A DNA stretch of 64,000 bases from Pseudomonadota bacterium (GTDB taxonomy: Bacteria; Desulfobacterota; Desulfarculia; Adiutricales; JAGVGV01). The notes beneath the pieces were generated by a model, which saw only the letters and a program-made list of their open reading frames with translations, did no database searches and had not been told where the DNA came from. Positions 26,991-47,035 of this stretch are shown here, piece after piece. Position 1 is the first letter of the stretch, and the number at the start of each line of letters is the position of its first letter. The translations under genes and the position numbers were made by a program. The stretch is from assembly GCA_043806915.1 (NCBI GenBank), contig JAZDGM010000024.1, positions 31,240 through 95,239 of the forward strand, in the 5' to 3' direction.

Positions 26991-27998
26991 TTAATCCTCG
27001 CCGAAGCGGCGGCCGCCGATTTCCAGGAAAGTCCCGACGCCCCTCTTCCCGGCTTCCTTTAAAATAAAAGCGGCGGCGGCGATATCTTCCACGGCCAGCC
27101 CCAGGGACTTGAACAGGGTGATTTCCCGGTCGTTTTGGCGGCCGGGTTTGAGGCCGGCCAGGACTTGGCCCAGTTCGCCGACAATATGGCTTTCATCCAC
27201 CAGCCCTTCGTCCCGCGGGATGAGGAAATCGCCGGCCTCGGCCACAAGCGCTTCCTTTTTGTCCGCGTATAGCCTGGCTTTCAGCACGCAGTTGGAGTCG
27301 AGCTCCCGGGTCTGGGGCCGAAAGGCGCCCACCGCGTTGATATGGGCGCCGGGCGCCACCCAGTCTCCCGACAAGACCGGCCGGGCGGCGGAAGTGACCG
27401 TGCAGATGATGTCGGCCCCTTCGACCGCTTCCCGGGCCGAGGGGACCGCTTCGACCGTCAACCCGCGTTTCCGGGATTCACGCCGGGCGAAACTGGCCGC
27501 GTTCTCGGGATTGCGGCTGAAAACCCGGACCCGCCGGATGTCCCGGACCAGCATCATGGCTTCGAGGTGAGCCGCGGCCTGGGCGCCGGACCCGAGCAGG
27601 GCCAGGTCCCCGGCCCCGGGCCGGGCCAGGGTCCGGGTCGCGACCCCGGATACGGCCGCGGTCCGGATGGCGGTCAAGGCCGTGGCGTCGACAATGGCCC
27701 GAAGCAAGCCATGGCCGGCCTCGAACAAAAGCACCACCCCGATGTGGGAATCGTGGGGCCCGCCCTCGTTTTTCGGAAAAGCGGAAATGACCTTGATCCC
27801 CATGGCCTGGAGGTCGTCCGCGTAACCGGGCATCCACCCCATGATGCTCTCGCCGTCGGGCAGGACGATTTTTGATCTCAAGGGCATGATAACGCCCCCC
27901 CGGGCCATCCCTTCCAGAGCCTCGGCCATGACTTCCAGGCAGGAGGCCATGGGCAGAAGCTCACGGACCTGATTCTGGTCCGCGATCAGGACTTCCAT
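26991..27998 (-). CDS. Ornithine cyclodeaminase / mu-crystallin family NAD(P) enzyme
   Basis: Family-typical length (335 aa) and Rossmann segment LALLGSGAQAAAHLEAM. Last gene of the corrinoid operon. Confidence 0.85.
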   Translation of the reverse strand: MEVLIADQNQVRELLPMASCLEVMAEALEGMARGGVIMPLRSKIVLPDGESIMGWMPGYADDLQAMGIKVISAFPKNEGGPHDSHIGVVLLFEAGHGLLRAIVDATALTAIRTAAVSGVATRTLARPGAGDLALLGSGAQAAAHLEAMMLVRDIRRVRVFSRNPENAASFARRESRKRGLTVEAVPSAREAVEGADIICTVTSAARPVLSGDWVAPGAHINAVGAFRPQTRELDSNCVLKARLYADKKEALVAEAGDFLIPRDEGLVDESHIVGELGQVLAGLKPGRQNDREITLFKSLGLAVEDIAAAAFILKEAGKRGVGTFLEIGGRRFGED

Positions 27999-28025
27999 AA
28001 TTTGCCTCCCGGTTTCACCGCGCCC

Positions 28026-29453
28026 TTATTTCTTTTTAAGAATGTATTCGATTTCGGACTTGACCGCCTCGTCCAGTGGCGCCGGCTGGTGCGCTTCCAT
28101 GACGGCGATGGTTTTGTCCTTGAGGCGCTTGCCCAGGGTCGGGCCGCCCTTGGACAGCCAGCGTTCCTTCCGGTCCCGGTTGAACAGGGTCGGCTGCCAG
28201 AGCCGGCGGAAATTCTTGTACGTGTGTTCGGCGGTCATGTAGTTGCCGCCGGGGCCGATCAGGTGAATCTGGTCCAGGGCCATGGATTCCTCGTCAAAGG
28301 AAATCCCTTTTTCGAAGGTCCGCATCATGTCGATGCATTCGTCGGCGAAAACGATCAGCTCGGGGGAAGTGGTCAGGCCGGATTCCATGTACCCCACGTC
28401 GTGGGCCAGGTGCTCTCCCGTCAAGAACCCCATCATAATGGTCGTGGCCGCGTCCGAGGCCGCCTGTTCGTCCATGTTATTGCTGTCCGTGTGCCCGGCG
28501 TACCCGAAGTGGGGCAAGCGGTAATACCGGCCCATGTCGGCCGCCGCCGCCCGGGCCAGCATCCATTCCGGGGCGTTGTACACGCTGATGGAGGTCCGCA
28601 TGTCCATGTGATGCAGGCCGTTGCCGTACATGAAGGGCGCGCCGGCGCGCTTGAGCTGGTGGATGACGATGCTCGAAAGCACCTCGGCGTTGCCCAGGGC
28701 CAGGGCGCCGGACAAGGTCACGGGCGCGGCCCCGCCCATCATGGGCGAGGGCTGATGCACCACGGGCACGGCCTTCTCGGCGGTGAACAGGAGTTTTTCC
28801 AGGGAATCCCTGGGCTGCACCAACGGGGTGGTCATCTGGCTGTAGCTGAGCAGGTTGGGGTTGAGCCGGAGGTTATCCTCGCCGCCGGCCGCCGCCGCCA
28901 TGGCGTAAATAGCCTCGCAGTCGGCCCGGTTGTCGGCGATAAAAACAATGGGCTTGGCCGTGTATTCCAGCATCAGGGCGAACTGGGTCTTGAACCGGTC
29001 GTGCTCGGGAGTGTCGGACGGGGCGCCCATGGACATGCAGAAATCGATCCGGGGCAGGGCGTCGACCAGCCGGATGCAGTCCTTGATCTCGCTGGTGGTG
29101 AAGGGCCGATGCTTATCGGTCTTGGGGTCCAGGTAATTGGCGCAATCCGAACCCGTGCCGAAATGGACTTCCCCCTCTTCCAGCCGAATCGCCGCCTCGT
29201 TCCCGCCCCGGCGGCAGAGGACCAGATGGGACGGCGCCTGGCGCAAGGCCCATTCCACCAGGTTGGCGGGCAGGAAGACCAGGGTTTCGTCCTTGATCAC
29301 CGCGTCGGTTTGTCTCAGCAGGTTCAAGGCCTCGGGGTGATGAACGCGAACGCCGGTGCGCCGCAGTATCTCCAAGGAAGCGCGATGAACGAACGCGCAT
29401 TGTTCCTCGCCGAGGAGACTGAATTTGGCCTTGGCCTCGGGAATTTTCGACAT
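28026..29453 (-). CDS. MttB-superfamily methyltransferase, non-pyrrolysine type (paralog 1)
   Basis: 475 aa uninterrupted ORF showing the MttB family pattern (EEQCAFVHRASLEILRRTGVRV..., HFGTGSD, GGAAPVTLSGAL, NYMTAEHT). No internal TAG. Co-operonic with the corrinoid protein and the pterin-binding methyltransferase. Confidence 0.88.
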   Translation of the reverse strand: MSKIPEAKAKFSLLGEEQCAFVHRASLEILRRTGVRVHHPEALNLLRQTDAVIKDETLVFLPANLVEWALRQAPSHLVLCRRGGNEAAIRLEEGEVHFGTGSDCANYLDPKTDKHRPFTTSEIKDCIRLVDALPRIDFCMSMGAPSDTPEHDRFKTQFALMLEYTAKPIVFIADNRADCEAIYAMAAAAGGEDNLRLNPNLLSYSQMTTPLVQPRDSLEKLLFTAEKAVPVVHQPSPMMGGAAPVTLSGALALGNAEVLSSIVIHQLKRAGAPFMYGNGLHHMDMRTSISVYNAPEWMLARAAAADMGRYYRLPHFGYAGHTDSNNMDEQAASDAATTIMMGFLTGEHLAHDVGYMESGLTTSPELIVFADECIDMMRTFEKGISFDEESMALDQIHLIGPGGNYMTAEHTYKNFRRLWQPTLFNRDRKERWLSKGGPTLGKRLKDKTIAVMEAHQPAPLDEAVKSEIEYILKKK

Positions 29454-29532
29454 TACTTCCTCCTTGCGTCATCCTTGGGCCGGAATGCGGCCGCCGGCGA
29501 ATGTGTTTTCAAGGGCTAGGGGAGCGGATGAA

Positions 29533-30663
29533 TCAGTCCCGGTCCATCTTCCCGGCCAGGTCCCGGTAGCGCCGGGCGGCCCGTTCCACCGCCTCGGGGT
29601 TCAATTGTATTCCCAACCCCGGCCCGGACAAAAGCCCCAGACAACCGTTTTTCAGGACCAAGCCCGGGGCCGCCAACAGGTCCTCGGCCAGCAACTGGTG
29701 CATGATCTGGTTGCCCTCGGTCAGATTGGGGACGGTCAGGGCCGCGTGGTGCTGGGCCAGGTCGGTGACGCCGGAAACCGACTGCCCATGCAGGCAGATG
29801 GACAGGCCGGCCGCCTCGGCGACGGCCGCGGCCTTGCGAAAAGCCAGCAACCCGCCGACCTCGTGGATTGATAAAACCAGGACGTCGGCGGCCCGGCGAC
29901 GGCAGATTTCATAGACGTCCTGAATGGTGAAAACCCCCTGGTCCGCGGCGATGGGGACCCGGCAGGATTCCTTGACCTGCTTGAGCGCGGCCAGGCTCCG
30001 GGCCGGGGTCGGCTGTTCGATGAACTCCGGGTCGAAGCGGGACAGCAGATTGATCATGCGGATGGCGGATGCGGGGTCCCAGGCTTCGTTGGCGTCCAGG
30101 CGCAGCCGGCGGGCGCCGATCACGGACCTGACCGCCGCGACGTTCTCCAGGTCCCGGGCCTCGCCCCGGCCGACTTTCAGATAAATGACCGAATGGCCGG
30201 CCGCGACCGCGGCCGCCGCCGACGCGGCCAACTCCTCGGCCGTGTCGCCCTGGGGAAAGCCGAAATAGTCCACCTCGGACCGAAAGGCCCCGCCCAGCAA
30301 CTGGTAGACCGGGCGGCCCGCCGCCTGCCCAATGACGTCCCACAGGGCCATTTCCAGCCCGGCCAGGGTCAGGGCCGCCAGCCGGGGCAGGTCGTTGAAC
30401 CCGCCCAGATGGCGGGCCGACCACATCAGGTTTTCGATATCAAAGGGAGACCGGCCGATCAAACCGGGGATGATCGCTTTCAGAAGCCCCAGGGCCCCCG
30501 TTCCGGGCGCCGGGGCCGTGGATTCCCCCAGCCCGACCAAGCCCTCGTCCGTTTCCACCCGGATGAGCAACACGGCCGCGCCATGGTCGACCCGGCCCGC
30601 CCAGTGATAGGGCTCCCGAAAATCAAGGAAGAGAGGAACAGGTTCGATCGCCGTTATTTTCAT
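29533..30663 (-). CDS. Enolase-superfamily enzyme (mandelate racemase / muconate lactonizing family)
   Basis: N-terminal capping domain plus a barrel with metal-ligand motifs RLDANEAW, FIEQP and IAADQ. The Lys usually found before the VGG motif appears replaced (LSIHEVGG), so subgroup and reaction are unassigned. Confidence 0.85.
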   Translation of the reverse strand: MKITAIEPVPLFLDFREPYHWAGRVDHGAAVLLIRVETDEGLVGLGESTAPAPGTGALGLLKAIIPGLIGRSPFDIENLMWSARHLGGFNDLPRLAALTLAGLEMALWDVIGQAAGRPVYQLLGGAFRSEVDYFGFPQGDTAEELAASAAAAVAAGHSVIYLKVGRGEARDLENVAAVRSVIGARRLRLDANEAWDPASAIRMINLLSRFDPEFIEQPTPARSLAALKQVKESCRVPIAADQGVFTIQDVYEICRRRAADVLVLSIHEVGGLLAFRKAAAVAEAAGLSICLHGQSVSGVTDLAQHHAALTVPNLTEGNQIMHQLLAEDLLAAPGLVLKNGCLGLLSGPGLGIQLNPEAVERAARRYRDLAGKMDRD

Positions 30664-30694
30664 CCCAGGCGGGCCCCCTCGTCCGGCGCCGGGC

Positions 30695-31492
30695 TCAGCC
30701 GGGCAGCCGTCCGGCCCGAAAGGCCTTCAGATATTTCATGCAATAATCGTCGCGACCGGCCAGGGCCTCGGCGGCGATAATGCCCGTCATCATCTTTTCA
30801 TCCAGGGGGTTGACGATGGCCCCGTCCAACCCCTTGGCAATGGCCATCATCATGAAGGTCTGATTCAAAAATTTCCGTGAAGGAAGTCCAAATGAAATAT
30901 TGGACAGGCCGCAGGCGGTGTGAATGCCCGGATAACGACTCCGAATCTGTTCCACGGCCTCGAGAAATTCCCGGCCGAAGGAATTGTTGACGCTGACCGG
31001 CTGCACCAGCGGGTCCACGAAAATATCGTCCAACTTCACGTTGCTTTGAACCAGGGCGTTGACCAGCTTGTCCGCGATGCGCAGCCGGTCTTCCACGGTC
31101 TGGGGCATGCCCTCGTCGCTCATGCACAAGGCGATGACCTTGAAACCGGAACCGGCGACAAGGGGCATCAGCTTGTCGAAGCGGTCTTTTTCGAGGGAAA
31201 TCGAGTTGATCATGGGGGCGCCCCGGTGGACGGACAACCCGGCCTCGATGGCCTGGGGGTTAGGGCTGTCCAGGGCGCACGGCTTGTCCGTGACCGCTTG
31301 CACGTTCTCGACCAGCCACTTCAGGTATTCGGGCTCCTGGTGGACGAACACCCCGGCGTTGACGTCGATGAAGTCCGCGCCGGCCTGGGCCTGGTCAAGG
31401 GCCGTCTTCCTGATATAGTCGGCGTCCTGGGCCGAAATCGCCTGGCCGATGGCTTTTCGGCTGGCGTTGATCAATTCTCCGATAATAATCAT
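30695..31492 (-). CDS. Methyltetrahydrofolate:corrinoid methyltransferase (pterin-binding, MtgA/AcsE/MtrH-like)
   Basis: MIIIGELINASRK, DFIDVNAG, INSISLE, GLSNISFGLP: pterin-binding barrel motifs. Start taken at the ATG at 31492. Confidence 0.85.
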   Translation of the reverse strand: MIIIGELINASRKAIGQAISAQDADYIRKTALDQAQAGADFIDVNAGVFVHQEPEYLKWLVENVQAVTDKPCALDSPNPQAIEAGLSVHRGAPMINSISLEKDRFDKLMPLVAGSGFKVIALCMSDEGMPQTVEDRLRIADKLVNALVQSNVKLDDIFVDPLVQPVSVNNSFGREFLEAVEQIRSRYPGIHTACGLSNISFGLPSRKFLNQTFMMMAIAKGLDGAIVNPLDEKMMTGIIAAEALAGRDDYCMKYLKAFRAGRLPG

Positions 31493-31628
31493 GTCGCGTC
31501 TCCGGCGCCAACCTCGGACCAGGAGCGGCAAGACGCCTTTCCGCTCCCCCGGCCGGGTCGGCTGAAATGAATCGCTCCCAAAACGGGCGGCGGAGGCGTC
31601 CCGCCCGGCCCGCCTCGAGGCGCGGAAA

Positions 31629-32261
31629 TCAGCTCAACATGCCCTTGGCCAGTTTGACCGCGGAACCGGCGTCGGTGGAAAAACCGTCCGCGCCGATCTC
31701 GTCGGCGTAGGCCTGGGTGACGGGCGCCCCGCCCACCAGGATTTTCACCTTGTCCCGCAGGCCGGCCGTCTTGACGGCCTCGATGGTGGCTTTCATCATC
31801 GGCATGGTCGTGGTCAAAAGGGCCGACAGGCAGATCAGGTCCGCATGCCTGGCCTGGGCCTGGCGCACGAATTCCTCGGGAGCGATGTCCACGCCCAGGT
31901 TATGCACTTCCAGGCCCGAGCTTTCCAGCATCATGGCCACCAGATTCTTCCCGATGTCGTGCAGGTCGCCCTTGACCGTGCCGATGACCACCCGGCCCCG
32001 AACCCCGGCCCCGCCCTCGCCCAGCAGGGGCTTGAGAATTTCCACCCCGGTCGCCATCACCTGCGCGGCCATCAGGACCTCGGGGATGAACATGTCCCCG
32101 TTCTCCATCTTTTCGCCGATAACGTCCATGCCCGGGATAAGACCCTGGGCCAGTATCTCCCCGGCCGAAACGCCGGCGTCCAGGTCCCGTTTGACATAGC
32201 CGGCCAAAACGTCCCTGGCCCCATCCATAAGCGCCTGCAAATACTTCTCCTTATCGACCAT
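31629..32261 (-). CDS. Corrinoid (cobalamin-binding) methyl-carrier protein
   Basis: B12-binding signature GDLHDIGKNLV (DxHxxG), plus SALLTTTM and ILVGGAPV. 210 aa, like MtgC/MttC-type proteins. Confidence 0.9.
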   Translation of the reverse strand: MVDKEKYLQALMDGARDVLAGYVKRDLDAGVSAGEILAQGLIPGMDVIGEKMENGDMFIPEVLMAAQVMATGVEILKPLLGEGGAGVRGRVVIGTVKGDLHDIGKNLVAMMLESSGLEVHNLGVDIAPEEFVRQAQARHADLICLSALLTTTMPMMKATIEAVKTAGLRDKVKILVGGAPVTQAYADEIGADGFSTDAGSAVKLAKGMLS

Positions 32262-32296
32262 TTCAGCCTCCTGGTATTAAATGGCGTCCATTGCCC

Positions 32297-32457
32297 GCGC
32301 GTTTTCGAAACGCGGTCCGGTTCGTTTACGGTCAAGCCCCGGGCCTTTTTTCCGGTTGTTCCAGCCCTTGTCGGGGCGGCTCGCGGCTCGTTTTTTTTCG
32401 CTTGACATGGTCAGGCCTTGACTGTATGACTATACTTGTATAGACGATATGTCAAGC
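32297..32457. promoter_or_regulatory. Divergent control region with palindromes (candidate HutC/GntR operators)
   Basis: CGCGTTT-tcg-AAACGCG at 32297-32313. GCTTGACAT at 32400-32408 is paired with ATGTCAAGC at 32449-32457. These enclose TGTATGACTATACTTGTATAGAC, which contains GTAT-N4-ATAC and GTATAGAC elements. TTGACA and TATACT hexamers are also present. Confidence 0.35.
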
Positions 32458-32582
32458 AAAAAACAAATACCTCCCCCCGCCGAAAACTTTCGAAAACAAC
32501 GGCCGGCGGAGGTCCTTCAACCGACTCGGCGACGCGAGGGGTCGACTTCGACCCGGGGCGTTTTTCGGAAAAGAGCACAGCC

Positions 32583-33377
32583 ATGGACCTTAATTCCCAA
32601 AACTTTTCCCGAAAAATCGACGACAGCCCGCTCCCCTTGTACCAAAAGCTGAAAAGCCTGATTGCCACCCGCATCCAAAAAAAGGAATGGCTGCCGGGCC
32701 AGCAGATACCATCCGAGGCGGAATTCGTCGAAACCTATGGCATTTCGCGGATGACGGCCAGCCGGGCCCTGCGGGAGCTGACCTCCGAGGGGTACCTGGT
32801 CAGGGTCCAGGGAGTGGGCACCTTCGTGGCCAGGCGCAAGCCCAAGGCGGATATGCTGCAAATCCGCAGCATCGCCGACGAAATCAGGGAACAGGGCGGC
32901 CTGTATTCCAACCGGGTGGATGTTCTGGTGGAGGAGCCTGCTTCCGAGCCGGTGGCCGAGGAGATGGAAATCGCCCCCGGGGAAAAAGTCTATCACAGCA
33001 TCATCGTGCATCTGGACCGGGGCGCGCCCATCCAGATCGAGGACCGCTATGTCGGCGTCGACATCGCCCCCGAATATATCCGGCAAAATTTCACCCGGAT
33101 CACGCCGACCCAGTATCTACTGGATATCGCCCCTCCGGCCGAGGTGGAGCATCTCCTGGAAGCGATCCTGCCGGACAAGAAGACCATGAAGCTCTTGAAG
33201 ATCGGGCCTCGCGAACCCTGCCTGGTGCTTCATCGGCGCACCTGGACCGCGGGCCGGGTGGTCACCTCGGTCAAGATGATCTATCCCGGCTCCCGGTACC
33301 GGATCGGCGGTCATTTCCGGCTCGACGAGTCCGGCCCCGCCGGTTCCGGGCCGCGCGGGTTTTCCTTCATTCCATGA
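32583..33377 (+). CDS. GntR-family transcriptional regulator, HutC subfamily (UTRA effector domain)
   Basis: wHTH segment PLYQKLKSLIATRIQKKEWLPGQQIPSEAEFVETYGISRMTASRALRELTSEGYLVRVQGVGTFV plus a UTRA-sized C-terminal domain. Lies 19 nt upstream of the hutH-like gene. Confidence 0.85.
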   Translation: MDLNSQNFSRKIDDSPLPLYQKLKSLIATRIQKKEWLPGQQIPSEAEFVETYGISRMTASRALRELTSEGYLVRVQGVGTFVARRKPKADMLQIRSIADEIREQGGLYSNRVDVLVEEPASEPVAEEMEIAPGEKVYHSIIVHLDRGAPIQIEDRYVGVDIAPEYIRQNFTRITPTQYLLDIAPPAEVEHLLEAILPDKKTMKLLKIGPREPCLVLHRRTWTAGRVVTSVKMIYPGSRYRIGGHFRLDESGPAGSGPRGFSFIP

Positions 33378-33396
33378 AAAACCGGAGGAACAGATA

Positions 33397-38136: not shown

Positions 38137-38242
38137 TCCGTCGCGGCGCCCCGGCCCGGCAAGCGAGTCGGCCCGGGGCTTCGCCGGAAAAATTTCCAAG
38201 CTGAAACGAACCGGGCCGATATTCCCAAGGGGGTTGCCGCAC

Positions 38243-39112
38243 ATGGAGGACAATAGTCGAACTCAACACGCCGCGGGGTTCGCCCTGTACTGGAAACGGT
38301 TTTTAAAAAACCCGTTTTCAGTGGCCGGAACGGCGATCTTCCTCTTCTTCCTGCTCATGGCGGGCGTCGGCCCCGCGGTCGCCCCCCACGGGTTCCAGGA
38401 ACAAAACATTTCCGAGCGCCTCCGCCCCCCCGGCGCCGCTCATCTCTTCGGGACCGATCAATACGGACGGGATATTTTCAGCCGCATCCTGACCGGGTCC
38501 CGGGGCATTTTCATCCTGGGCGGGTCGGGGACCATCCTGGCGGCCCTGCTCGGGACCGCCATCGGACTCTTTTCCGGGTTTTACGGCGGACTCATCGACG
38601 AGACGATCATGCGGGCCCTGGACATTTTGCTGGCCTTCCCGCCCCTGCTCCTGGCCCTGGTGCTCCTGGCTTCTTCCGGCCCCTCCCTGGTCAACCTGGT
38701 GGCGGTGGTGACCATTCTCTACACGCCCATGCTGGCCCGGGTCGTGCGCGGCCTGACCCTCGACCTGAAAACCAAGGAATTCATCGAGGCGGCCAAGACC
38801 AGGGGCGAATCGAAGTTCTATATTCTATTCAGGGAAATCCTGCCCAACGCCCTGGCCCCGCTCTTCGTCGAAATGTCCATGCGGTTTTCCTACGCCATTT
38901 TCCTGGTCGCTTCCCTGGGCTTTCTGGGCCTGGGCCAGCAACCCCCGTCCCCCGACTGGGGCTTGCAAATTAACGAGGCCCGCCCCTACTTTTCCACCGC
39001 GCCCTGGATGCTGCTTTTTCCGGCGGCGGCCATCTCGGTCCTGGTGGTGTCCACCAACCTGATGAGCGACGGACTACGGCAAGTCCTGCAGCCGACCGCG
39101 GACCGGAGGTGA
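38243..39112 (+). CDS. ABC transporter permease (DppC/OppC-like)
   Basis: Six-TM binding-protein-dependent permease with EAA-like loop (EFIEAAKTRGESKFYILFREILPNALAP). Confidence 0.85.
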   Translation: MEDNSRTQHAAGFALYWKRFLKNPFSVAGTAIFLFFLLMAGVGPAVAPHGFQEQNISERLRPPGAAHLFGTDQYGRDIFSRILTGSRGIFILGGSGTILAALLGTAIGLFSGFYGGLIDETIMRALDILLAFPPLLLALVLLASSGPSLVNLVAVVTILYTPMLARVVRGLTLDLKTKEFIEAAKTRGESKFYILFREILPNALAPLFVEMSMRFSYAIFLVASLGFLGLGQQPPSPDWGLQINEARPYFSTAPWMLLFPAAAISVLVVSTNLMSDGLRQVLQPTADRR

Positions 39113-39114
39113 TT

Positions 39115-41196
39115 ATGGGTTCGGAAGCCGTCCCCACCCTCGACATCGAAAACCTGACCATTGCCTACGAAACGGAAACCGGGACCCTTCTCGCCGTCCG
39201 AAACGCCACGGTCGGCATCCGGAAAGGCGAAAGCTTCGGGCTGGTGGGCGAGTCCGGCTCGGGCAAGACCACCCTGGCCCTGGGCGCCATCCGCTACCTG
39301 CCGGCCAACGGCCGCATCGCCGGCGGACGGGTCCGCTTGCAAGGGCAGAGCCTGACCGATACGCCCTGGCGCGACCTGTTCAACATCTGGGGCAAACGCA
39401 TCGGCATGGTCTACCAAAACCCGGGCGGCGCCCTGAACCCGAGCCTGACCATCGGGCGGCAGATATCCGAGGCCGCGGTTATCCACCAGGGCCTGACCAA
39501 GAAGGAAGGCCTGGCCAAGGCCGTGGAGATGCTCGGCAAGGTGGCCATGCCCAACCCCGCGACCGTGATCAACCTTTATCCCCACCAGTTGTCCGGCGGA
39601 ATGTTGCAGCGCTGCATCATCGCCATGGGCCTGATCAACGACCCCGAACTATTGATCATGGACGAACCCACCACCGCCCTGGACGTCACCACCCAGGCCC
39701 TGGTGCTGGACCTGGTCTCGGACCTCAAAAAACAGTTCGACTCGTCCATTCTCTACATTACCCACGACTTGGCCGTGGTGGCCAAAATCTGCGACCGCAT
39801 CGGCGTCATGTACGCCGGCGAAATGGTGGAAATCGGTCCCAAGCGGGAAATGTTCTTCCATTCGCGCCATCCCTACACCATGAGCCTGTTGGGGTGCATA
39901 CCGCATTTCGACCCCCGGAGCCGCAAGCGCTCCCTGGTCAGCATCCCCGGCCGGATTCCCCGGCTCACCCGGTTGCCCGACGGCTGCATCTTTTCTCCCC
40001 GGTGCTTTTTCGTCCAGGATAGGTGCCGACTGGAGCGTCCGCCGTTCCGGGAAATAGCTCCCGGCCATTTTTCAGCCTGTTTCCACTGGGACGTCCTGCC
40101 GCGACGCGTCGAGGACGTGGCCGGAAGCATCTCGTACCCCCGGCCGGAACAGGCCGCGGTCCTGTTGAAGGCCGATAGGGTGCATAAGGAATTCGACGCC
40201 GTGGAAACCTTTTTCAGCCTGAAGGGAAAAAGCGGAAAAAAGGTCAAGGCGGTCAACGACGTCTCCCTGGAAATACCCGAGGGATACACCCTGGGCATCG
40301 TGGGTGAAAGCGGCTGCGGCAAGACCACCTTCATGAGGACCATCATCGGGCTGCAAGCCCCGACCTCCGGTCAAAACAGCCTGCGCGGGCTGCCCCTGGC
40401 GCCGGAAACGTCCCAACGCCCCCGGGACGTTCTGCGCAAAATACAGATGGTTTTCCAGAACCCCGACGCGTCCCTGAACCCGCGGCACACCCTGGCCCAG
40501 GCCATCGGCCGCCCCATGGTCCTGTTCAACCCCCAAATGGACCGTTCGACCGCCGCTAGAAAGACCCTGGAATTGCTGGAAGCGGTCAACCTTCCGGCCC
40601 ACTACGCCGAGAGGCTGCCCGGGGAGCTCAGCGGCGGGGAAAAACAGCGGGCCGCCATCGCCCGGGCGTTCGCCGCGGACCCGGAACTGGTCCTGCTCGA
40701 CGAACCGCTCTCCGCCCTGGACGTGTCGGTCCAGGCATCCCTGGTCAACCTCCTGTTCGAGCTGCAAGCCCGAAACCGGGCGACCTATCTGTTCATCTCC
40801 CACGACCTGGCGGCGGTCCATCACCTGGCGGACCTGATCGCGGTGATGTACCTGGGCCGGGTCATGGAAGTCGGGGAAGCGGACGACGTCTTCGCGCCTC
40901 CGTTTCATCCGTACACCGAGGCCCTGCTCTCGGCCATTCCGGTGGCCAATCCGGATATCCGGCAGGAAAACATCCGGCTTCATGGTTCGGTCCCCAATCC
41001 CGTGGACCTGCCCTCGGGCTGCGTCTTTCATACCCGCTGCCCCCGAAAAATCGGGCCGATCTGCGAAACCGAGACGCCGCCCTGGCGCGGCGGTAAAAAA
41101 CAGAGCCGGGTCTGGTGCCACTTCGACCTGGACGCCCTGGCCGCCGTGCAGGCCCAAGCCATCCGGTCAGCGGAACAAAACGGGGTGACGGCATGA
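39115..41196 (+). CDS. Fused double ATP-binding protein of ABC transporter (DppD-DppF-like)
   Basis: Two complete cassettes: GESGSGKTT / LSGGMLQR / LIMDEPTTALD and GESGCGKTT / LSGGEKQR / VLLDEPLSALD. A GTG at 39109 is an alternative start. Confidence 0.9.
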   Translation: MGSEAVPTLDIENLTIAYETETGTLLAVRNATVGIRKGESFGLVGESGSGKTTLALGAIRYLPANGRIAGGRVRLQGQSLTDTPWRDLFNIWGKRIGMVYQNPGGALNPSLTIGRQISEAAVIHQGLTKKEGLAKAVEMLGKVAMPNPATVINLYPHQLSGGMLQRCIIAMGLINDPELLIMDEPTTALDVTTQALVLDLVSDLKKQFDSSILYITHDLAVVAKICDRIGVMYAGEMVEIGPKREMFFHSRHPYTMSLLGCIPHFDPRSRKRSLVSIPGRIPRLTRLPDGCIFSPRCFFVQDRCRLERPPFREIAPGHFSACFHWDVLPRRVEDVAGSISYPRPEQAAVLLKADRVHKEFDAVETFFSLKGKSGKKVKAVNDVSLEIPEGYTLGIVGESGCGKTTFMRTIIGLQAPTSGQNSLRGLPLAPETSQRPRDVLRKIQMVFQNPDASLNPRHTLAQAIGRPMVLFNPQMDRSTAARKTLELLEAVNLPAHYAERLPGELSGGEKQRAAIARAFAADPELVLLDEPLSALDVSVQASLVNLLFELQARNRATYLFISHDLAAVHHLADLIAVMYLGRVMEVGEADDVFAPPFHPYTEALLSAIPVANPDIRQENIRLHGSVPNPVDLPSGCVFHTRCPRKIGPICETETPPWRGGKKQSRVWCHFDLDALAAVQAQAIRSAEQNGVTA

Positions 41197-42137
41197 TACG
41201 CTTCCTCATTCGCCGCCTGGGCTTTGTCGCGATCACCATTATCGCTTCCTCGGCCTTGATCTTCCTCGCCACCCAGGTGATGCCCGGGGACGTGGCCCGC
41301 ATGATCCTCGGGCGGTTCGCCACCGACGAGGCCCTCCACGCCCTGCGGGAACAGTTGGGGCTCAACCGGCCCTTGCTCGTCCAGTATTTTTCGTGGCTGT
41401 TCGATTTCGTCCGGGGCGACTGGGGCGTGTCCTTGAGCACCAACAGCCCGGTCATGGAACTGGTCTTTGGCCGGTTGCATAATTCGGCCTGGCTGGCGGG
41501 AGTGGCCTTTGTGCTGTACGTCCCTTTAGGCATTCTGCTGGGGCTCTGGGCCGCCTTGCGCCGCAACACCATCACGGACCAAATCATTTCCATCGGGTCC
41601 CTGTCTTTTATCGGGCTTCCGGAATTCGTCACCGGAGTAATCCTGATCTCGGTTTTCGCCATTAAACTCAAATGGCTCCCGGCCAGCTCGGCCATCATGC
41701 CGGACGCCGGGTTCATGCAGGCCCTGCCGCGCCTGATCCTGCCCGGAGTGTCCACCGCCCTGGTCAGCCTGGCCTATGTCACCCGGATGACCCGGTCGAG
41801 CACCATCGATGTTCTGCACACCGATTACGTGCGCACCGCCTATCTCAAGGGGCTCCGGCCGCGCCGGGTGTTGTTCGGGCACGTCCTTCGAAACGCCCTG
41901 CTGCCCACCATTACCGTGGTGGCCATCGGCGTGGGCTGGCTCATCGGCGGCCTGATCGTGACGGAATCGCTTTTCAGCTACCCCGGGCTGGGCCGCCTGC
42001 TGCTTTTCGCCATCCAGCGCCAGGACCTGCCCCTGATCCAGGCCACGACCCTGCTGTTGGTGCTGATATTCAGCGTGTCCAATCTGGTCGCCGATATTCT
42101 GTACGCCTATCTGAACCCCCGCATCCGCTATGATTGA
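41193..42137 (+). CDS. ABC transporter permease (DppB/OppB-like)
   Basis: MIRFLIRRLGFVAITIIASSALIFL N-terminus typical of DppB-type permeases. ATGA overlap with the ATPase gene. Confidence 0.9.
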   Translation: MIRFLIRRLGFVAITIIASSALIFLATQVMPGDVARMILGRFATDEALHALREQLGLNRPLLVQYFSWLFDFVRGDWGVSLSTNSPVMELVFGRLHNSAWLAGVAFVLYVPLGILLGLWAALRRNTITDQIISIGSLSFIGLPEFVTGVILISVFAIKLKWLPASSAIMPDAGFMQALPRLILPGVSTALVSLAYVTRMTRSSTIDVLHTDYVRTAYLKGLRPRRVLFGHVLRNALLPTITVVAIGVGWLIGGLIVTESLFSYPGLGRLLLFAIQRQDLPLIQATTLLLVLIFSVSNLVADILYAYLNPRIRYD

Positions 42138-42239
42138 CGGGCGGGACGGGGGGATTTGGCAATGACCTGGACGCGAGTCGGCTTCGCCCGCGCGTCCGAA
42201 TCGGCGACGGCGGGGGCCGTCGCTCGCGAGGTATAAAAA

Positions 42240-44273
42240 ATGCTGAACAACAATCAAATCCTTGAGGCCATGGCTATCAGGCTCGACGAGGTCCCCCGGT
42301 CGACCCCGACCTTCGTCCCCGGGGTCAGGCGGGCGCCCGACCGGGGGTTTCGCCTCACCCCGGCCCAGGCCGCCGCGGCCCTGAAAAACGCCCTGCGCTA
42401 TATTCCGCCGGAGCGCCACGCCGAATTGCTCCCCGAATTTGTGAACGAGCTTAAAACCAGGGGCCGCATTTACGGTTATCGCTTTCGGCCGGAAGGACGC
42501 CTGTGGGCCAAACCCGTCCAGGAATACCAGGGCAAATGCCTGGCCGGACGGGCTTTCCAGGTGATGATCGACAACAACCTGGATTTCGAGGTCGCCCTTT
42601 ATCCCTACGAGCTGGTCACCTACGGCGAAACAGGGGCGGTCTGCCAGAACTGGATGCAGTACCGCCTCATCAAAAAATACCTGGAAGCCTTGACCGAGGA
42701 CCAGACCCTGGTGGTTCAGTCCGGCCATCCCCTGGGGCTTTTCCGTTCCGCTCCGGACAACCCCCGGGTGGTCATCACCAACGGGTTGCTGGTGGGGTTG
42801 TACGACAACCCGGCGGATTGGGAAGTGGCGGTCCAGATGGGGGTTTCCTCCTACGGCCAGATGACCGCGGGCGGCTGGATGTACATCGGTCCCCAGGGCA
42901 TTGTTCACGGGACCTACAACACGCTTCTGAGCGCCGGCAGGAAAATGTGCGGCGTGGCCCCGGAATCAAACCTGGCCGGGCTCCTGTTCGTCTCCTCCGG
43001 GCTCGGCGGCATGAGCGGCGCCCAACCCAAGGCCGCTAAAATTTCCGGCGCGGTCTCCCTCACCGCCGAGGTGGACCCTTCCCGGATCGAGACCCGCCGC
43101 CGGCAGGGCTGGGTGGACCTGGTTTCCAGCGACCTGGACCAGGTCATGATCGCCGCGGACCGGGCCCGGGCGCAAAAGCAGGCCCTGTCCATCGCCTACC
43201 ACGGCAACGTGGTGGACCTGCTCGAATACCTCGACGCCCATGACGCGAGGGTCGATCTGCTCTCGGACCAGACATCCTGCCATGTGGTTTATGACGGCGG
43301 GTATTGCCCCCAGGGCCTGACCTTCGAGGAACGAACGGACATGCTGGCCCGCGACCGGGCCGGTTTCCGCGCCCTGGTGGATAAAAGTCTCCGCCGCCAC
43401 TTCCAGCTCATTAAATCCCTGTCCGCCAAGGGCGCCTATTTCTTCGATTACGGCAACGCCTTTTTAAAGGCCGTCTTCGATTCCGGCGTCCGGGAAGCCT
43501 CGAAAAACGGCGTGGACGATAAGGACGGCTTCGTCTTCCCCTCCTACTTCGAGGACCTCATGGGTCCCATCTTCGACTACGGTTACGGCCCGTTCCGCTG
43601 GGTCTGCCTGAGCGGCAGTCCCGAGGACCTAGCCAAAACCGACCGGGCCGCCATGAGCTGCATCGACCCGAACCGCCGCCCCGAGGACCGGGACAACTAC
43701 AACTGGATTCGCGACGCCGGCGAAAACAAGCTCGTGGTGGGCAGCCAGGCCCGCATTCTGTACCAGGACGCCGGGGGGCGGGTCAACATCGCCCTCAAGT
43801 TCAACGAATTGGTCCGGCGGGGAGAAATAGGGCCGGTCATGCTCGGCCGGGACCACCACGACCCGGGCGGGACGGATTCGCCCTTCCGTGAAACAGCCAA
43901 CATCAAGGACGGCAGCAACGTCTGCGCCGACATGGCGGTTCATGGCTTCGCCGGCAACGCGGCCCGGGGCATGTCCCTGGTCGCCCTGCACAACGGCGGC
44001 GGCACCGGCATCGGCAAGGCCGTCAACGGCGGCTTCGGCTTGGTCCTGGACGGCAGCCGACGGGTCGACGACATCATCGGGTCGGCCATGTCCTGGGACG
44101 TCATGGGCGGCGTGGCCCGTCGCAACTGGGCCCGCAACCCCAACGCCATGGAAGTGGCCGCGGCGTACAACCGGGAAAATTCCAACGGCGACCAGATCAC
44201 CATCCCCTTCCTGACCGAGGAAGGCTTGGTCGAACAGGCCGCGGCCGCGTTGTTCACCACGGACAAACAATAA
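42240..44273 (+). CDS. hutU: Urocanate hydratase family, long (about 677 aa) form
   Basis: MTAGGWMYIGPQGIVHGTYNTL and SSGLGGMSGAQPKA (NAD site) motifs. The length resembles the long, eukaryote-like urocanase class. Confidence 0.88.
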   Translation: MLNNNQILEAMAIRLDEVPRSTPTFVPGVRRAPDRGFRLTPAQAAAALKNALRYIPPERHAELLPEFVNELKTRGRIYGYRFRPEGRLWAKPVQEYQGKCLAGRAFQVMIDNNLDFEVALYPYELVTYGETGAVCQNWMQYRLIKKYLEALTEDQTLVVQSGHPLGLFRSAPDNPRVVITNGLLVGLYDNPADWEVAVQMGVSSYGQMTAGGWMYIGPQGIVHGTYNTLLSAGRKMCGVAPESNLAGLLFVSSGLGGMSGAQPKAAKISGAVSLTAEVDPSRIETRRRQGWVDLVSSDLDQVMIAADRARAQKQALSIAYHGNVVDLLEYLDAHDARVDLLSDQTSCHVVYDGGYCPQGLTFEERTDMLARDRAGFRALVDKSLRRHFQLIKSLSAKGAYFFDYGNAFLKAVFDSGVREASKNGVDDKDGFVFPSYFEDLMGPIFDYGYGPFRWVCLSGSPEDLAKTDRAAMSCIDPNRRPEDRDNYNWIRDAGENKLVVGSQARILYQDAGGRVNIALKFNELVRRGEIGPVMLGRDHHDPGGTDSPFRETANIKDGSNVCADMAVHGFAGNAARGMSLVALHNGGGTGIGKAVNGGFGLVLDGSRRVDDIIGSAMSWDVMGGVARRNWARNPNAMEVAAAYNRENSNGDQITIPFLTEEGLVEQAAAALFTTDKQ

Positions 44274-44355
44274 GGGCGAGGCGCAAGGCCCTTGCCCGGC
44301 GGTCCCGGCCCGGCGCTTCCCCGACCGGATCGGGACCGCGACCCAGGATAGACAG

Positions 44356-45966
44356 ATGAAAAAAATAGTCGAATGCGTCCCCAACTTTTCCGAGGGCCGC
44401 GCTCCCGAAATAATCGAAGCCCTGGCCGCGGCCATTCGCCAAACCCCGGGCTGCCGGCTGCTGGACGTGGACCCCGGCAAGTCCACCAACCGGACCGTCT
44501 ACACCTTTGTCGGAGACCCGGAAGCCGTGGTGGAAGGCGCCCTGGCCGCCGCCCGGGTGGCCCGGGAAAAAATCGACATGAGGCGTCACACCGGCGAACA
44601 CCCCCGCTTCGGCGCCCTCGACGTCTGCCCCTTTGTCCCCGTTTCCGGGGTCGACATGGCCGAGTGCGTGGCCATCTCGAAGGAATTCGCCCGCCGCGCC
44701 GCCGAGGAACTGGGGGTCCCCATCTTTCTGTACGAGGAAGCGGCGCCGGCCGAATATCGTAAAAAGCTGCCCGATATTCGCCGGGGGGAATACGAGGGCC
44801 TGGCTCAAAAATTGACCGACCCCCGCTGGAAGCCCGACTTCGGACCGGCCGAATTCATCCCCTCCTGGGGGGCCTCGGCCGTCGGAGCCCGCATGTTCCT
44901 TATCGCCTACAACGTCAACATCCTCGGCGCGCCCAACCAGGCCCACCGGATCGCCTTGAACCTGCGGGAAGCCGGGCGCGGGGACGACCAGCCCGGCCGG
45001 CTTAGGGAAGTCAAGGGCATGGGGTGGTTCGTCGCCGAATATAACCTGGCCCAGGTGACCGTCAACTTGACCGATTTCCGGGTCACCCCCCTTCACGTTT
45101 TGTTCGAGGAAGTGAAAAGGGAAGCCGCGGCCCTGGGCGTCGGCGTGGCCGGGTCCGAAATCGTGGGGGTCGTCCCCCTGGAAGCCATTCTGGCCGCCGC
45201 CGATTATTATATCGAACACGAAAACCTGTTTATCTACCAGGAAGACCAGAAGGCGCGGCTGGCCGTGGAGCGGCTGGGCCTAAGCTCCGCCAATTTCTTC
45301 AATCCCCGGGAAAAAATCATCGAATACATCGTGGCCGAGCCTCCCGACGAACCCTTGGCCGGCCCGACCCTGCGCGGCTTTATCGAGGAAGTCGCTTCCC
45401 GGTCGTCCGCGCCGGGCGGCGGGTCCGTCTCCGCCGCGGCCGCGGCCCTGGGCGTGGGCTTGGGGTCCATGGTCGCCAAGCTCACCCAGGGCGTGCGCAA
45501 GTTCGAGTCGGCTGAACCCGCCTTGCGACGGGCCATACCCGTTCTGCACGACCTGACCCGGAAACTGATCCCCATGATCGACGCGGATACGACCGCCTTC
45601 AACGAATATATGGCCGGCTTGCGGGCCCCCCGGGACACGCGGGAACAGCGGGAAGCCCGGGCCGCCCAAATGGAAGCCGGGTTGAAAACGGCGGTGGAAG
45701 TTCCCCTGAAAACCATGCGGCTCGGCGACCAGGCCTGGGAAGCGCTCCTGGAAGTCGCCCGATGCGGCAACCCCGCCTCCAAATCCGATGTCCAGGTCGG
45801 CGCCAGGATGCTGGAAACCGGCGTCTGGGGCGCCTACCAGAACGTCTTGATCAATATCACGGGCGTCCAAGACCGGGATTTCAGGGAAACCGTGTTGAAG
45901 GAAGCGGAAGCGATCGCGAACCGGGCGCGGGAAAAATGCGCCTCGGTCCTGGATATTCTGAAATAA
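44356..45966 (+). CDS. ftcD: Bifunctional glutamate formimidoyltransferase / formimidoyl-THF cyclodeaminase
   Basis: N-terminal MKKIVECVPNFSEGR (formiminotransferase) and a C-terminal cyclodeaminase segment SSAPGGGSVSAAAAALGVGLGSMVAKLT. Confidence 0.9.
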   Translation: MKKIVECVPNFSEGRAPEIIEALAAAIRQTPGCRLLDVDPGKSTNRTVYTFVGDPEAVVEGALAAARVAREKIDMRRHTGEHPRFGALDVCPFVPVSGVDMAECVAISKEFARRAAEELGVPIFLYEEAAPAEYRKKLPDIRRGEYEGLAQKLTDPRWKPDFGPAEFIPSWGASAVGARMFLIAYNVNILGAPNQAHRIALNLREAGRGDDQPGRLREVKGMGWFVAEYNLAQVTVNLTDFRVTPLHVLFEEVKREAAALGVGVAGSEIVGVVPLEAILAAADYYIEHENLFIYQEDQKARLAVERLGLSSANFFNPREKIIEYIVAEPPDEPLAGPTLRGFIEEVASRSSAPGGGSVSAAAAALGVGLGSMVAKLTQGVRKFESAEPALRRAIPVLHDLTRKLIPMIDADTTAFNEYMAGLRAPRDTREQREARAAQMEAGLKTAVEVPLKTMRLGDQAWEALLEVARCGNPASKSDVQVGARMLETGVWGAYQNVLINITGVQDRDFRETVLKEAEAIANRAREKCASVLDILK

Positions 45967-45973
45967 CCGCCGG

Positions 45974-47035
45974 TTGGCGACAGGAAAACATATTGTGATT
46001 GACCTCGAAAAATTCAACGAACTGTTCCATGTTCCCCCGGCCATGAGAAAATATATCAAGCTGGTGGTCGAACCGCGGGAAATGGAACTGATTCTGGCCC
46101 TGAACGGCGAGACTCTCGACCCGCCGGAAATCGCCCGCCGCCTTGGCCTGCCGGTGGAGGAAGCCGCGGCCTTCCTTGCGCGCTCCTACGAACGCCACGT
46201 AACCACCAAGATCGTGGGCGGGGAAAAAGTCGGCTATGTCTTCGACTACGTGGACGAAACGGGACGGGAAATCCGTTATGCCCCGGCCAAGTTCTACGAC
46301 CGCCTCGACCCGCTGACCATGAACGAAAACTGGACCGATATTCCCGAGGATGTCCGCAAGGAAATTAGCGAGTGGTGGCTGACGGAATATATCGCCAAGG
46401 TCCGGCCCATAGTGGAAAAGATCAAGGAAGACCCGGAAGCCTATTTTCAGATAAAACAGAAGGACTTCCTGTTGGTGGAACAAGCCCTGGAACAGGTGGA
46501 GGCCGCCGAGTTTCACGTGGTGGTCAACTGCGACTGCCGGTCCAGCGAATTGGCTTGCAATCATATGAAGGAAGGCTGCATCCGGTTCGACGACGGGGCC
46601 AGGTACACCGTGGGGCGAGGCCTGGGGCGCGTCCTGACCAAGGACGAGTGCAAAAAGCTGGTCCTGGAAACGGACCGCGACGGCTTGATGCACATCGGCG
46701 CCCTGGGCTGGAAGGAACATGGCCTGTTCGGGTTCTGCAACTGCTGCACCTGCTGCTGTTTCCCCCTCAGGACCGCGGAAAGGCTGCATAGCCAAAAACA
46801 ATACCCCCGCTCCCATTACCTCGCCGTTCGAGACCTGGAAAAATGCATCCACTGCGGGTTATGCACCAAGCGGTGCCAGTTCCACGCCTTTTTTAAGGGC
46901 GAGGACAAACTGGAAATCAAGGGTAAACTGAGGACCAGGGTGCTCTTCGATCCGGAAAAATGCTATGGCTGCGGACTCTGCGCCTCGGCCTGCCCCCAAG
47001 GCGCCATTGTCATGAAAAAGTTGGAACAAGGCTAG
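45974..47035 (+). CDS. Cys-rich iron-sulfur protein (wHTH-like N-terminus, CNCCTCCC cluster, 2x[4Fe-4S] ferredoxin motifs)
   Basis: CIHCGLCTKRCQ and CYGCGLCASACP ferredoxin motifs. Additional Cys clusters NCDCRSSELACNHMKEGC and GFCNCCTCCCFP. Start codon uncertain (TTG at 45974 or GTG at 45995). Confidence 0.7.
   Translation: MATGKHIVIDLEKFNELFHVPPAMRKYIKLVVEPREMELILALNGETLDPPEIARRLGLPVEEAAAFLARSYERHVTTKIVGGEKVGYVFDYVDETGREIRYAPAKFYDRLDPLTMNENWTDIPEDVRKEISEWWLTEYIAKVRPIVEKIKEDPEAYFQIKQKDFLLVEQALEQVEAAEFHVVVNCDCRSSELACNHMKEGCIRFDDGARYTVGRGLGRVLTKDECKKLVLETDRDGLMHIGALGWKEHGLFGFCNCCTCCCFPLRTAERLHSQKQYPRSHYLAVRDLEKCIHCGLCTKRCQFHAFFKGEDKLEIKGKLRTRVLFDPEKCYGCGLCASACPQGAIVMKKLEQG

Follow-up and report, generated by a model that had tools for sequence, protein, structure and literature searches.

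Why should methyltransferases of the corrinoid-dependent MttB superfamily be encoded among the genes of histidine utilisation (hut), and which methylated compound would they act on? The question is raised by two divergent operons at positions 26991–47035 of a 64-kb stretch of bacterial DNA (contig JAZDGM010000024.1; hereafter the window), which encode two MttB paralogs, MttB1 and MttB2, next to a histidine ammonia-lyase (HAL) and the histidine-utilisation repressor HutC. Comparison with related genomes showed that the wiring of MttB/corrinoid methyl transfer into the HutC regulon, and elsewhere into that of HutP, is real and conserved. We consider that the locus is probably a corrinoid-dependent demethylation front end joined to, and co-regulated with, histidine utilisation, with an N-methylated histidine as its substrate. 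The original prediction, made from the letters of the window, had a methylated histidine demethylated before the hut steps, both of its one-carbon (C1) units ending on tetrahydrofolate (THF), and this is still the best reading of the locus. Full-text literature searches returned no paper linking MttB enzymes to hut genes, histidine ammonia-lyase, hercynine or methylhistidine.

Divergent operons, their relatives and a common operator

Profile searches of the open reading frames (ORFs) of the window against Pfam and NCBIfam, with bit scores judged against the NCBIfam cut-offs, recovered every gene family that had been predicted, arranged in two divergent operons as follows.

26991–27998, minus strand: OCD/mu-crystallin family enzyme, ketimine-reductase-like, 335 aa (PF02423, 275 bits)
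28026–29453, minus strand: MttB1, MttB-superfamily methyltransferase of the type without pyrrolysine (non-Pyl) (PF06253, 276 bits)
29533–30663, minus strand: enolase-superfamily enzyme, MLE subgroup (MR_MLE_N and MR_MLE_C)
30695–31531, minus strand: pterin-binding methyl-corrinoid:THF methyltransferase, MtgA/MetH-folate-domain type (PF00809; NF005719, 367 bits versus a cut-off of 259)
31629–32261, minus strand: corrinoid protein, methyl carrier (B12-binding and B12-binding_2; GDLHDIG matching DxHxxG)
32262–32582: shared divergent control region, 321 bp, between the start codons of the two operons
32583–33377, plus strand: HutC histidine-utilisation repressor, GntR/UTRA (TIGR02018 equivalog, 283 bits versus 220)
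33397–34926, plus strand: histidine ammonia-lyase HutH, of the 4-methylideneimidazole-5-one (MIO) type (hutH equivalog TIGR01225, 681 bits versus 539; GSVGASGD)
35026–36474, plus strand: MttB2, hut-linked non-Pyl MttB-superfamily methyltransferase (PF06253, 264 bits)
36601–38136, plus strand: family-5 (Dpp/Opp/Nik-type) substrate-binding protein, SBP_bac_5 (PF00496)
38234–39112, plus strand: OppC/DppC-like permease (OppC_N and BPD_transp_1)
39109–41196, plus strand: fused double ATPase, equivalent to DppD-DppF (two ABC_tran and two oligo_HPY stretches)
41115–42137, plus strand: OppB/DppB-like permease, probable start ATG 41193 (BPD_transp_1_N and BPD_transp_1)
42240–44273, plus strand: urocanate hydratase HutU, long form, 677 aa (hutU equivalog, 428 bits versus 375)
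44356–45966, plus strand: fused glutamate formiminotransferase-cyclodeaminase, FTCD (FTCD_N, FTCD and FTCD_C; FtcD equivalog, 394 bits versus 221)
45974–47035, plus strand: Cys-rich Fe-S protein, 353 aa, with two C-terminal [4Fe-4S] motifs

The Fe-S protein was absent from the earlier description. The predicted HutC-type GntR regulator is present, although its frame is ORF 32436–33377, with a probable ATG at 32583, and not the overlapping ORF 32687–33397, which had no Pfam match. Neighbours on the same strand overlap or sit at most 99 nt apart, one 126-nt gap excepted. The three parts of an MttB system are encoded together, namely an MttB enzyme, a DxHxxG corrinoid protein and the pterin methyltransferase that unloads the methyl group onto THF; neither a corrinoid protein nor a THF methyltransferase is encoded in the plus-strand operon. 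The corrinoid protein scores under the MtgC-specific cut-offs of NCBIfam, and the true start of the pterin methyltransferase is probably the ATG at 31492. Solved relatives of the family-5 binding protein are only distant (at most 123 bits), and its ligand cannot be inferred from them.

A genome scan with one genome per species yielded 80 orthologs of MttB2 (55–73% identity), almost all from Desulfobacterales or other Thermodesulfobacteriota; their neighbourhoods, cited here by L numbers, were read by mapping the window proteins onto the loci and by clustering the ORFs of the loci. A gene for a hut enzyme (HAL, urocanase, imidazolonepropionase (HutI) or FTCD) lay within 8 kb of the MttB2 ortholog in 30 of the 80 loci and, where 5 kb or more was available on each side, in 17 of 38. 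Counted by gene, HAL was found in 26 loci, urocanase in 11, FTCD in 8 and HutI in 5. The hut-linked loci are spread over several separate subclades and differ in gene order. In Desulfamplus magnetovallimortis a single MttB heads one unit with the order mttB-hutH-hutC-x-hutU-hutI-ftcD, and at least L025, L046, L084 (= L018), Zhaonella formicivorans and Desulfosporosinus orientis have HutI within the operon. The adjacency of hutH and mttB, from which the prediction of a methylated histidine started, is thus not confined to this genome; it is seen in numerous species, including members of a second phylum.

Among relatives with long contigs the closest is L081 (79% identity), where the genes for MttB1 and the corrinoid protein face those for HutC, MttB2, the importer and the Fe-S protein, and a perfect HutC box is present; hut enzymes, enolase, OCD and pterin methyltransferase were not found at that locus. 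The core module therefore consists of HutC, both MttBs, the importer, the corrinoid protein and the Fe-S protein, and in the window the hut enzymes are inserted into it. Orthologs of MttB1 adjoin HutC-MttB2 in L001, L002, L004 and L081, joined by the corrinoid protein in L004 and L081. Orthologs of the binding protein (69–80%) come after MttB2 in L002–L005 and L081, and in the opposite orientation in L063. As a separate observation, one Desulfobacterales subgroup (L031, L033, L039 and L040; for example, L040:2926–4506) has the MttB2 ortholog a few kilobases from a fused HisH-HisF, the imidazole glycerol phosphate synthase, and a class I/II aminotransferase, and seven loci (L030, L032, L033, L037, L039, L040 and L056) have an ornithine-aminotransferase-like class III gene downstream.

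Regulation points the same way. Within the 321-bp divergent gap, a promoter scan placed a sigma-70-like promoter at 32408–32436 on the plus strand, and an operator search found the HutC-type operator TTGTATAGACGA at 32436–32447, abutting the promoter-like site. This box is one mismatch away from TTGTMTAKACAA, which we take to be the palindromic operator consensus of the HutC subfamily. Across the 80 related loci, zones of at most 400 bp upstream of the starts of mttB2 orthologs, hutC or hutH, 51 kb in total, held 14 boxes where 0.26 were expected, versus 6 boxes in the other 1.18 Mb (Poisson P ~7e-20); by locus, 12 of the 80, and L081 as well, have such a box ahead of mttB2, hutC or hutH. The enrichment indicates that the predicted HutC control of mttB2 is conserved, which supports the MttB paralog as a genuine, conserved member of a predicted HutC-controlled hut operon. 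The effector of HutC in characterised systems is urocanate. A terminator scan of the locus gave nothing above chance.

A scan of metagenomes with MttB1 and a subsequent search of proteins located further carriers. In Z. formicivorans (CP085524.1, L113:183–18656) the order is OpuA-type importer, Fe-S protein, aldehyde:ferredoxin oxidoreductase (AOR), sigma-54 activator, MttB, MttB and a MIO HAL with its ASG triad, after which HutU, HutI and separate formiminotransferase and cyclodeaminase genes complete the set. D. orientis DSM 765 (CP003108.1, L112:1494–17933) has an OpuA-type importer and the Fe-S protein upstream of an MttB pair, then a corrinoid protein, HutU (435 bits versus 375), a 238-aa protein that matches no family and HutI (473 versus 298), with no HAL within 10 kb. 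Desulfurispora thermophila combines HutU, importer, AOR, two MttBs and a corrinoid protein. In Dethiobacteria the order is hutH, hutP (PF09021, 102 bits), MttB, Dpp importer, an MttB1-like gene and a hydroxylase of the xanthine dehydrogenase (XDH) type, HutP being a Bacillus-style histidine-responsive antiterminator. Clusters of this type (L105:2–17691; L111:7828–21470; L091; L085) go on with an XDH-type molybdenum hydroxylase of three subunits, a further MttB and a separate cyclodeaminase gene, a content which suggests that the subfamily also serves other N-heterocycles. All MttBs of this Bacillota set share the arginine-less His-Asp signature described below. With three types of regulator (HutC, HutP and sigma-54), two importer families and two phyla, chance synteny is very unlikely.

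Active sites of the MttB paralogs and the ammonia-lyases

MttB1 and MttB2 are 39% identical to each other and each ~28% identical to MtgB of Desulfitobacterium hafniense, the best solved relative of both over a full-length alignment (E-values 1e-58 and 1e-49); both align end to end with 2QNE, 9YCE and 7XCL. In a phylogeny with MtgB as its sole characterised member, MtgB fell outside all local clades. In MtgB, Tyr97 and Phe356 are cation–pi partners and Arg312 and His348 are carboxylate ligands; the characterised non-Pyl enzymes act on acidic quaternary amines, the acidic group being salt-bridged by Arg312, a residue kept in all members of known function, that is, MtgB, MtpB, MtcB, MtyB and MthB (PMC13080624, a structure paper of 2026). 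At the same positions the window enzymes read as follows.

MttB2: Ser at 97, Trp at 312 (Trp317), His at 348, Gly at 356
MttB1: Ser at 97, Phe at 312, His at 348, Gly at 356

Only His348 among the four glycine-betaine contacts is therefore kept, Tyr97 giving way to a Ser or Thr of the GTGSD motif, Arg312 to Trp or Phe and Phe356 to Gly, and position 312 is Trp in 79 of the 80 MttB2 orthologs. An Asp follows the His348 equivalent (motifs GTGSDC and HDVGY in MttB1, GTGSD and NHDVGY in MttB2), and we refer to such enzymes as the His-Asp type. With ~28% identity to MtgB and with Trp or Phe in place of Arg312, neither paralog looks like a known betaine enzyme. Without Arg312, binding of an alpha-betaine in the manner of MtgB is less likely, and the active-site residues of both paralogs ruled out a glycine betaine enzyme of the MtgB type. 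A trimethylamine (TMA) methyltransferase of the pyrrolysine type was ruled out too, there being no in-frame UAG and scores of 349 and 359 bits versus the TIGR02369 cut-off of 525.

Set beside known systems, the window shares with MtgB/MtgC/MtgA of D. hafniense (2QNE, 9YCE) the three-component logic of methyltransferase, DxHxxG corrinoid protein and pterin–THF enzyme, and its paralogs share the TIM-barrel MttB superfamily with MtgB; it differs in the 28% identity, in three of four contacts, in a corrinoid protein below cut-off and in the placing of the genes within a hut operon. MtpB, MtcB, MtyB and MthB of Eubacterium limosum (proline betaine, carnitine, gamma-butyrobetaine and phosphocholine) are likewise non-Pyl members that move one methyl to a corrinoid protein, but they keep Arg312 and acidic quaternary amine substrates, whereas the window enzymes have no Arg312. 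Pyl-MttB/MttC of Methanosarcina barkeri (7XCL), of the same superfamily, has in common with the paralogs a Gly-Thr (GTG) corrin-contact motif, an aromatic residue at 312 and an active-site loop that aligns without gaps; it differs in Pyl334, which aligns with Thr in MttB2, and in Tyr364, which aligns with the His of the His-Asp pair. To our knowledge, only six substrates are known for the MttB superfamily.

The lyase narrows down what the MttB enzymes would have to deliver. The window HAL has the MIO triad (ASG) and all canonical substrate and catalytic motifs, and every full-length HAL beside an MttB2 ortholog has an (A/S)SG triad; the HALs of the window, Zhaonella and Dethiobacteria L111 keep nearly all canonical motifs, among which are the His and Glu in contact with the two ring nitrogens. 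A canonical MIO HAL with contacts for an unmodified imidazole and a free amine implies that the demethylated product should be free L-histidine, and with MttB and HAL in series the last demethylation would fall on a secondary alpha-amine or an imidazole nitrogen. We therefore suggest, at rather less than even confidence, that the His-Asp type carries out pyrrolysine-independent corrinoid demethylation of a non-quaternary nitrogen (an imidazole N-methyl, or secondary and tertiary alpha-amines), giving L-histidine. In a broader version the subfamily would specialise in N-methylated heteroaromatic cations (imidazolium, pyridinium, purinium), which would explain its neighbours among XDH-type hydroxylases, serine-dehydratase-like (SDH-like) dehydratases, PrpD and UbiD.

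The hut set itself is of a familiar kind. It shares with the HutC-controlled pathway of the Pseudomonas/Klebsiella type equivalog-level HutC, HutH, HutU and FtcD and a palindromic operator, and ends in formiminotransferase-cyclodeaminase, as in clostridia and mammals; it differs in the added MttB and family-5 importer, in having no hutI and in its corrinoid partner operon. The histidine betaine trimethylammonia-lyase of Shewanella woodyi and the ergothionase of Treponema denticola (6S7J) convert N-alpha-trimethylated histidines to (thio)urocanate without MIO, releasing TMA in one step and conserving no methyls, whereas the window lyase is a MIO HAL. An ergothioneine route was ruled out by the MIO of the lyase and by the urocanase, with 312–352 bits versus cut-offs of 880–930 for thiourocanate and S-methylthiourocanate hydratases.

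L005 (L005:7257–21086, Desulfocapsaceae, with HutC boxes) encodes HutC, an MttB of the Arg312 type, an MttB2 ortholog, the Dpp importer known from the window (the two binding proteins share 69% identity), a corrinoid protein and the pterin methyltransferase, together with an Ldh_2-family dehydrogenase and a MIO-less ergothionase-like lyase. The best match of this lyase is 6S7J; GSVGAS-DL replaces ASG, and a His occupies the position of the thiolate-binding Lys of ergothionase.

Proposed pathway and candidate substrates

From the gene identities, the operator sequence and the conserved linkage observed above, we infer a substrate class, an order of steps and an effector of HutC. An N-methylated histidine compound would be imported by the Dpp-type ABC system, MttB2 would move an N-methyl to the corrinoid protein in its Co(I) state, and MttB1 would probably take a methyl from a second position or from a related compound. 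The pterin-binding methyltransferase would then pass the methyl from the corrinoid protein to THF. Free L-histidine, the presumed product of demethylation, would be converted by the MIO HAL to urocanate, and urocanase, an imidazolonepropionase encoded elsewhere and FTCD would take urocanate to glutamate, placing the formimino carbon on THF. HutC would repress both divergent operons from one operator until urocanate accumulates.

Several observations weigh against this pathway, which rests on gene context and sequence. A tblastn search of the 64-kb window with the HutI of L084 gave no match to hutI, so that the conversion of urocanate to formiminoglutamate is incomplete within these 64 kb. No hut enzyme gene lies within 8 kb in 50 of the 80 MttB2-ortholog loci, and the linkage is accordingly frequent, not obligatory. 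AOR, although frequently encoded beside MttB2, has no role in the scheme. We know of no precedent for a non-Pyl MttB that demethylates a secondary amine or an imidazole nitrogen. Last, the MIO-less lyase that accompanies an MttB2 ortholog in L005 indicates that histidine need not always be an intermediate.

Within the N-methylated histidines, we give roughly equal odds to the N-alpha series (hercynine with its dimethyl and monomethyl homologues) and to methylation of the ring, as N(pi)- or N(tau)-methylhistidine. The original prediction named hercynine (N-alpha-trimethylhistidine); it is a possible candidate but not an established one, given the canonical MIO HAL, the missing Arg312 and the comparable fit of the ring N-methylhistidines. 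Stepwise demethylation of hercynine to histidine by the MttB paralogs ahead of the hut steps, perhaps ending in an oxidation whose formaldehyde AOR would deal with in other genomes, is a tentative proposal that we hold to be on the doubtful side. Hercynine is the only common natural histidine betaine and is abundant in microbes, all known substrates of non-Pyl MttBs are quaternary amines, two MttBs per cluster are the rule, and L005 unites a MIO-less ergothionase-like lyase, an Arg312-type MttB, an MttB2 ortholog, the same importer and HutC boxes. The Bacillota clusters have a binding protein of the OpuAC type (betaine family); OpuAC-type proteins in proteobacterial hut operons transport histidine itself, so the type of transporter is not decisive here. 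The proposal is burdened by the three methyls that must go before a canonical MIO HAL can act, by complete operons with one MttB only, and by the absence from the window of any Arg312-type enzyme, Arg312 being the residue that holds the alpha-carboxylate in MtgB and is kept in the proline-betaine enzyme. Moreover, the only described hercynine route uses a one-step MIO-less lyase with urocanate and TMA as products (bioRxiv 10.1101/2025.08.13.670108). Ring-methylated histidines, taken up free or derived from anserine- or balenine-type dipeptides or from proteins, deserve the same limited credence. Each paralog would demethylate one ring nitrogen of the protonated imidazolium, and this single step would give L-histidine, the exact substrate of a canonical HAL. 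Such a division of labour explains both the complete hut operons with one MttB and the paralog pairs elsewhere; the methyl group is far from the carboxylate, consistent with Trp or Phe at 312 and the conserved His-Asp pair, the importer belongs to the dipeptide class, a gene for an M20 amidohydrolase is found close to the Dethiobacteria cluster, and one carrier (L053) is a gutless-worm symbiont. Corrinoid demethylation of an imidazole nitrogen is, however, without known biochemical precedent, most loci have no dipeptidase (in those of Desulfobacterales neither a dipeptidase nor a beta-alanine transaminase was found, only the ornithine-aminotransferase-like gene of seven loci), the MIO-less lyase of L005 cannot use histidine, the importer of the Bacillota clusters is of the OpuAC type, and AOR is left without explanation.

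That the MttB substrate is unrelated to histidine, being either a different methylated amine without an acidic group or TMA that a lyase has freed from hercynine, seems unlikely. The hut genes would then travel with mttB only by way of a common THF C1 pool or by regulatory hitch-hiking, as the 50 of 80 ortholog loci without nearby hut enzyme genes might suggest; genes for XDH-type hydroxylases, PrpD, UbiD and SDH-like proteins also occur next to members of this MttB subfamily, and in its GTG motif and aromatic residue at 312 the active site is closer to that of the TMA enzyme than to those of the betaine enzymes. Yet the linkage recurs with three regulators, two importer families, many gene orders and two phyla, a HutC operator stands directly before mttB2 even in an operon without a hut enzyme, a MIO HAL liberates ammonia and not TMA, and there is no pyrrolysine codon.

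If the proposed demethylation of a methylated histidine holds, it would be new chemistry for the superfamily, methyl transfer from non-quaternary nitrogens without pyrrolysine, and the first pathway for the breakdown of methylated histidines in which the methyls are retained on THF. Anaerobes would be able to consume hercynine, or the unmetabolised methylhistidines that animals excrete, with no release of TMA and with every C1 unit kept on folate, and corrinoid methyltransferases would join the HutC and HutP regulons. A large uncharacterised clade (at least 80 Desulfobacterales species and Bacillota relatives) of a superfamily abundant in anoxic sediments, symbionts and guts would thereby gain a testable substrate class. 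Cultured carriers are Z. formicivorans, D. orientis DSM 765, D. thermophila, Desulfocicer vacuolatum DSM 3385 and D. magnetovallimortis.

Minus-strand accessory genes, recurrent partners and surroundings

The original prediction had placed the whole minus-strand operon in the histidine pathway. This part of it is not supported, as the enolase, OCD and SDH-like genes recur with MttB1 relatives where no hut genes are visible. The last of the three lies just outside the two operons.

25229–26884, plus strand: serine-dehydratase-like Fe-S protein, beta and alpha parts fused, 551 aa (Pfam SDH_alpha; NCBIfam sda_alpha/sda_beta, below cut-offs)

It stands tail to tail with the OCD gene, has orthologs (56–57%) in L085 and L086 in operons with MttB1-like or enolase genes, and probably belongs to the minus-strand module; we take its product to resemble the 2-(hydroxymethyl)glutarate dehydratase type of nicotinate fermentation. 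Homologs of the enolase (65–70% identity) are embedded in MttB/corrinoid/Dpp clusters without visible hut genes in L085–L087. L085 has Dpp, corrinoid protein, MttB, XDH subunits, enolase, an MttB1-like gene (63%), the XDH molybdenum subunit, another MttB1-like gene (59%) and the SDH-like gene; L086 (Thermoleophilia) has corrinoid protein, an MtmB-like gene, SDH-like, AOR, OCD (46%) and enolase; and L087 has Dpp, PrpD, enolase, an MttB1-like gene (59%) and the Fe-S protein (44%). MttB1 relatives at 54–63% adjoin enolase or XDH genes in other genomes. The best solved relative of the OCD enzyme is a delta1-pyrroline-2-carboxylate reductase (6t3e, 251 bits); that of the enolase, 2pgw (359 bits), has no function assigned, and a literature search on the function of 2PGW gave nothing relevant.

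Clusters of enolase, OCD and SDH-like genes without visible hut genes make it unlikely that these enzymes act in the breakdown of histidine. Their probable place is a second branch, which would handle a different N-methylated compound and draw on the same corrinoid protein and THF methyltransferase. It is quite improbable that both operons, enolase and OCD included, form one linear pathway for a single histidine-derived betaine, an arrangement for which the divergent operons with one control region and its HutC box, the plus-strand operon without corrinoid protein or THF methyltransferase, and the synteny with HutC-MttB2 of MttB1 and corrinoid protein in L004 and L081 (MttB1 also in L001 and L002) would speak. 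Against it, enolase, OCD and pterin methyltransferase are absent from L081 and from the mapped parts of L001, L002 and L004, the enolase homologs of L085–L087 cluster with MttB1-like, OCD and SDH-like genes and no visible hut genes, and histidine catabolism needs neither a racemase or dehydratase nor a ketimine reductase. The catabolism of hydroxyproline betaine and 3-hydroxyproline uses an enolase-superfamily epimerase or dehydratase and a pyrroline-2-carboxylate reductase, with Rieske or flavin demethylases, not corrinoid ones. The window resembles it in having an enolase-superfamily enzyme and an OCD ketimine reductase beside a betaine demethylase, and differs in the enolase, which scores 97 bits versus the cut-off of 500 in the cis-3-hydroxy-L-proline dehydratase model.

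Two redox proteins recur next to the MttB genes. A gene for a tungsten AOR/FOR-type aldehyde:ferredoxin oxidoreductase lies 0–60 nt upstream of the MttB2 ortholog in 51 of the 80 Desulfobacterales loci (for example, L056:2663–4543 and L083:8079–9950), in 16 of them together with hut enzyme genes and typically in the order HAL-AOR-MttB2. AOR is also present in the Zhaonella (L113:5002–6882), Desulfurispora (L114:6465–8354) and Thermoleophilia (L086:4090–5952) clusters and was not found in this window. Identity as a BamB-like ring reductase was ruled out (1AOR 327 bits and 1B25 311 versus BamB 170). The Cys-rich Fe-S protein has the motif CNCC.CCC.P; only residues ~285–348 match Fer4 models, and the N-terminal 280 residues have no Pfam, NCBIfam or PDB match. 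Its homologs accompany MttB modules of the arginine-less kind in two phyla, in L081 (73%, L081:17233–18273), L001 (67%) and L087 (44%, L087:10361–11365), and in the Bacillota D. orientis (L112, 33%, L112:7856–8833) and Z. formicivorans (L113, 34%, L113:3834–4787). It is possibly a partner in electron transfer or corrinoid reactivation; we speculate that AOR and the Fe-S protein supply low-potential electrons for the reactivation of Co(II), or oxidise an aldehyde by-product.

The surroundings of the locus hold further genes. After the Fe-S protein comes hypB (47144–47857), as in L081, where hypB and then hypA come next (L081:18323–19350); this is probably conserved synteny with hydrogenase maturation genes and not part of the MttB system. 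Some 7 kb downstream, at 53990–56710, a 906-aa molybdenum aldehyde oxidoreductase of the MOP type has two [2Fe-2S] domains and molybdenum cofactor domains and no FAD domain; a link to the XDH genes of L085 and L105 was ruled out, the identity being only 30–33%. Directly upstream of the SDH-like gene, 22609–25035 encodes a methyl-accepting chemotaxis protein whose sensor is of the Cache_3-Cache_2 type and which may serve as a chemoreceptor for the substrate of the module. Farther away in the window are a 1032-aa CheB-CheR-PAS fusion protein (6419–9517) and a 391-aa protein with two tandem TetR-type DNA-binding modules (18342–19517).

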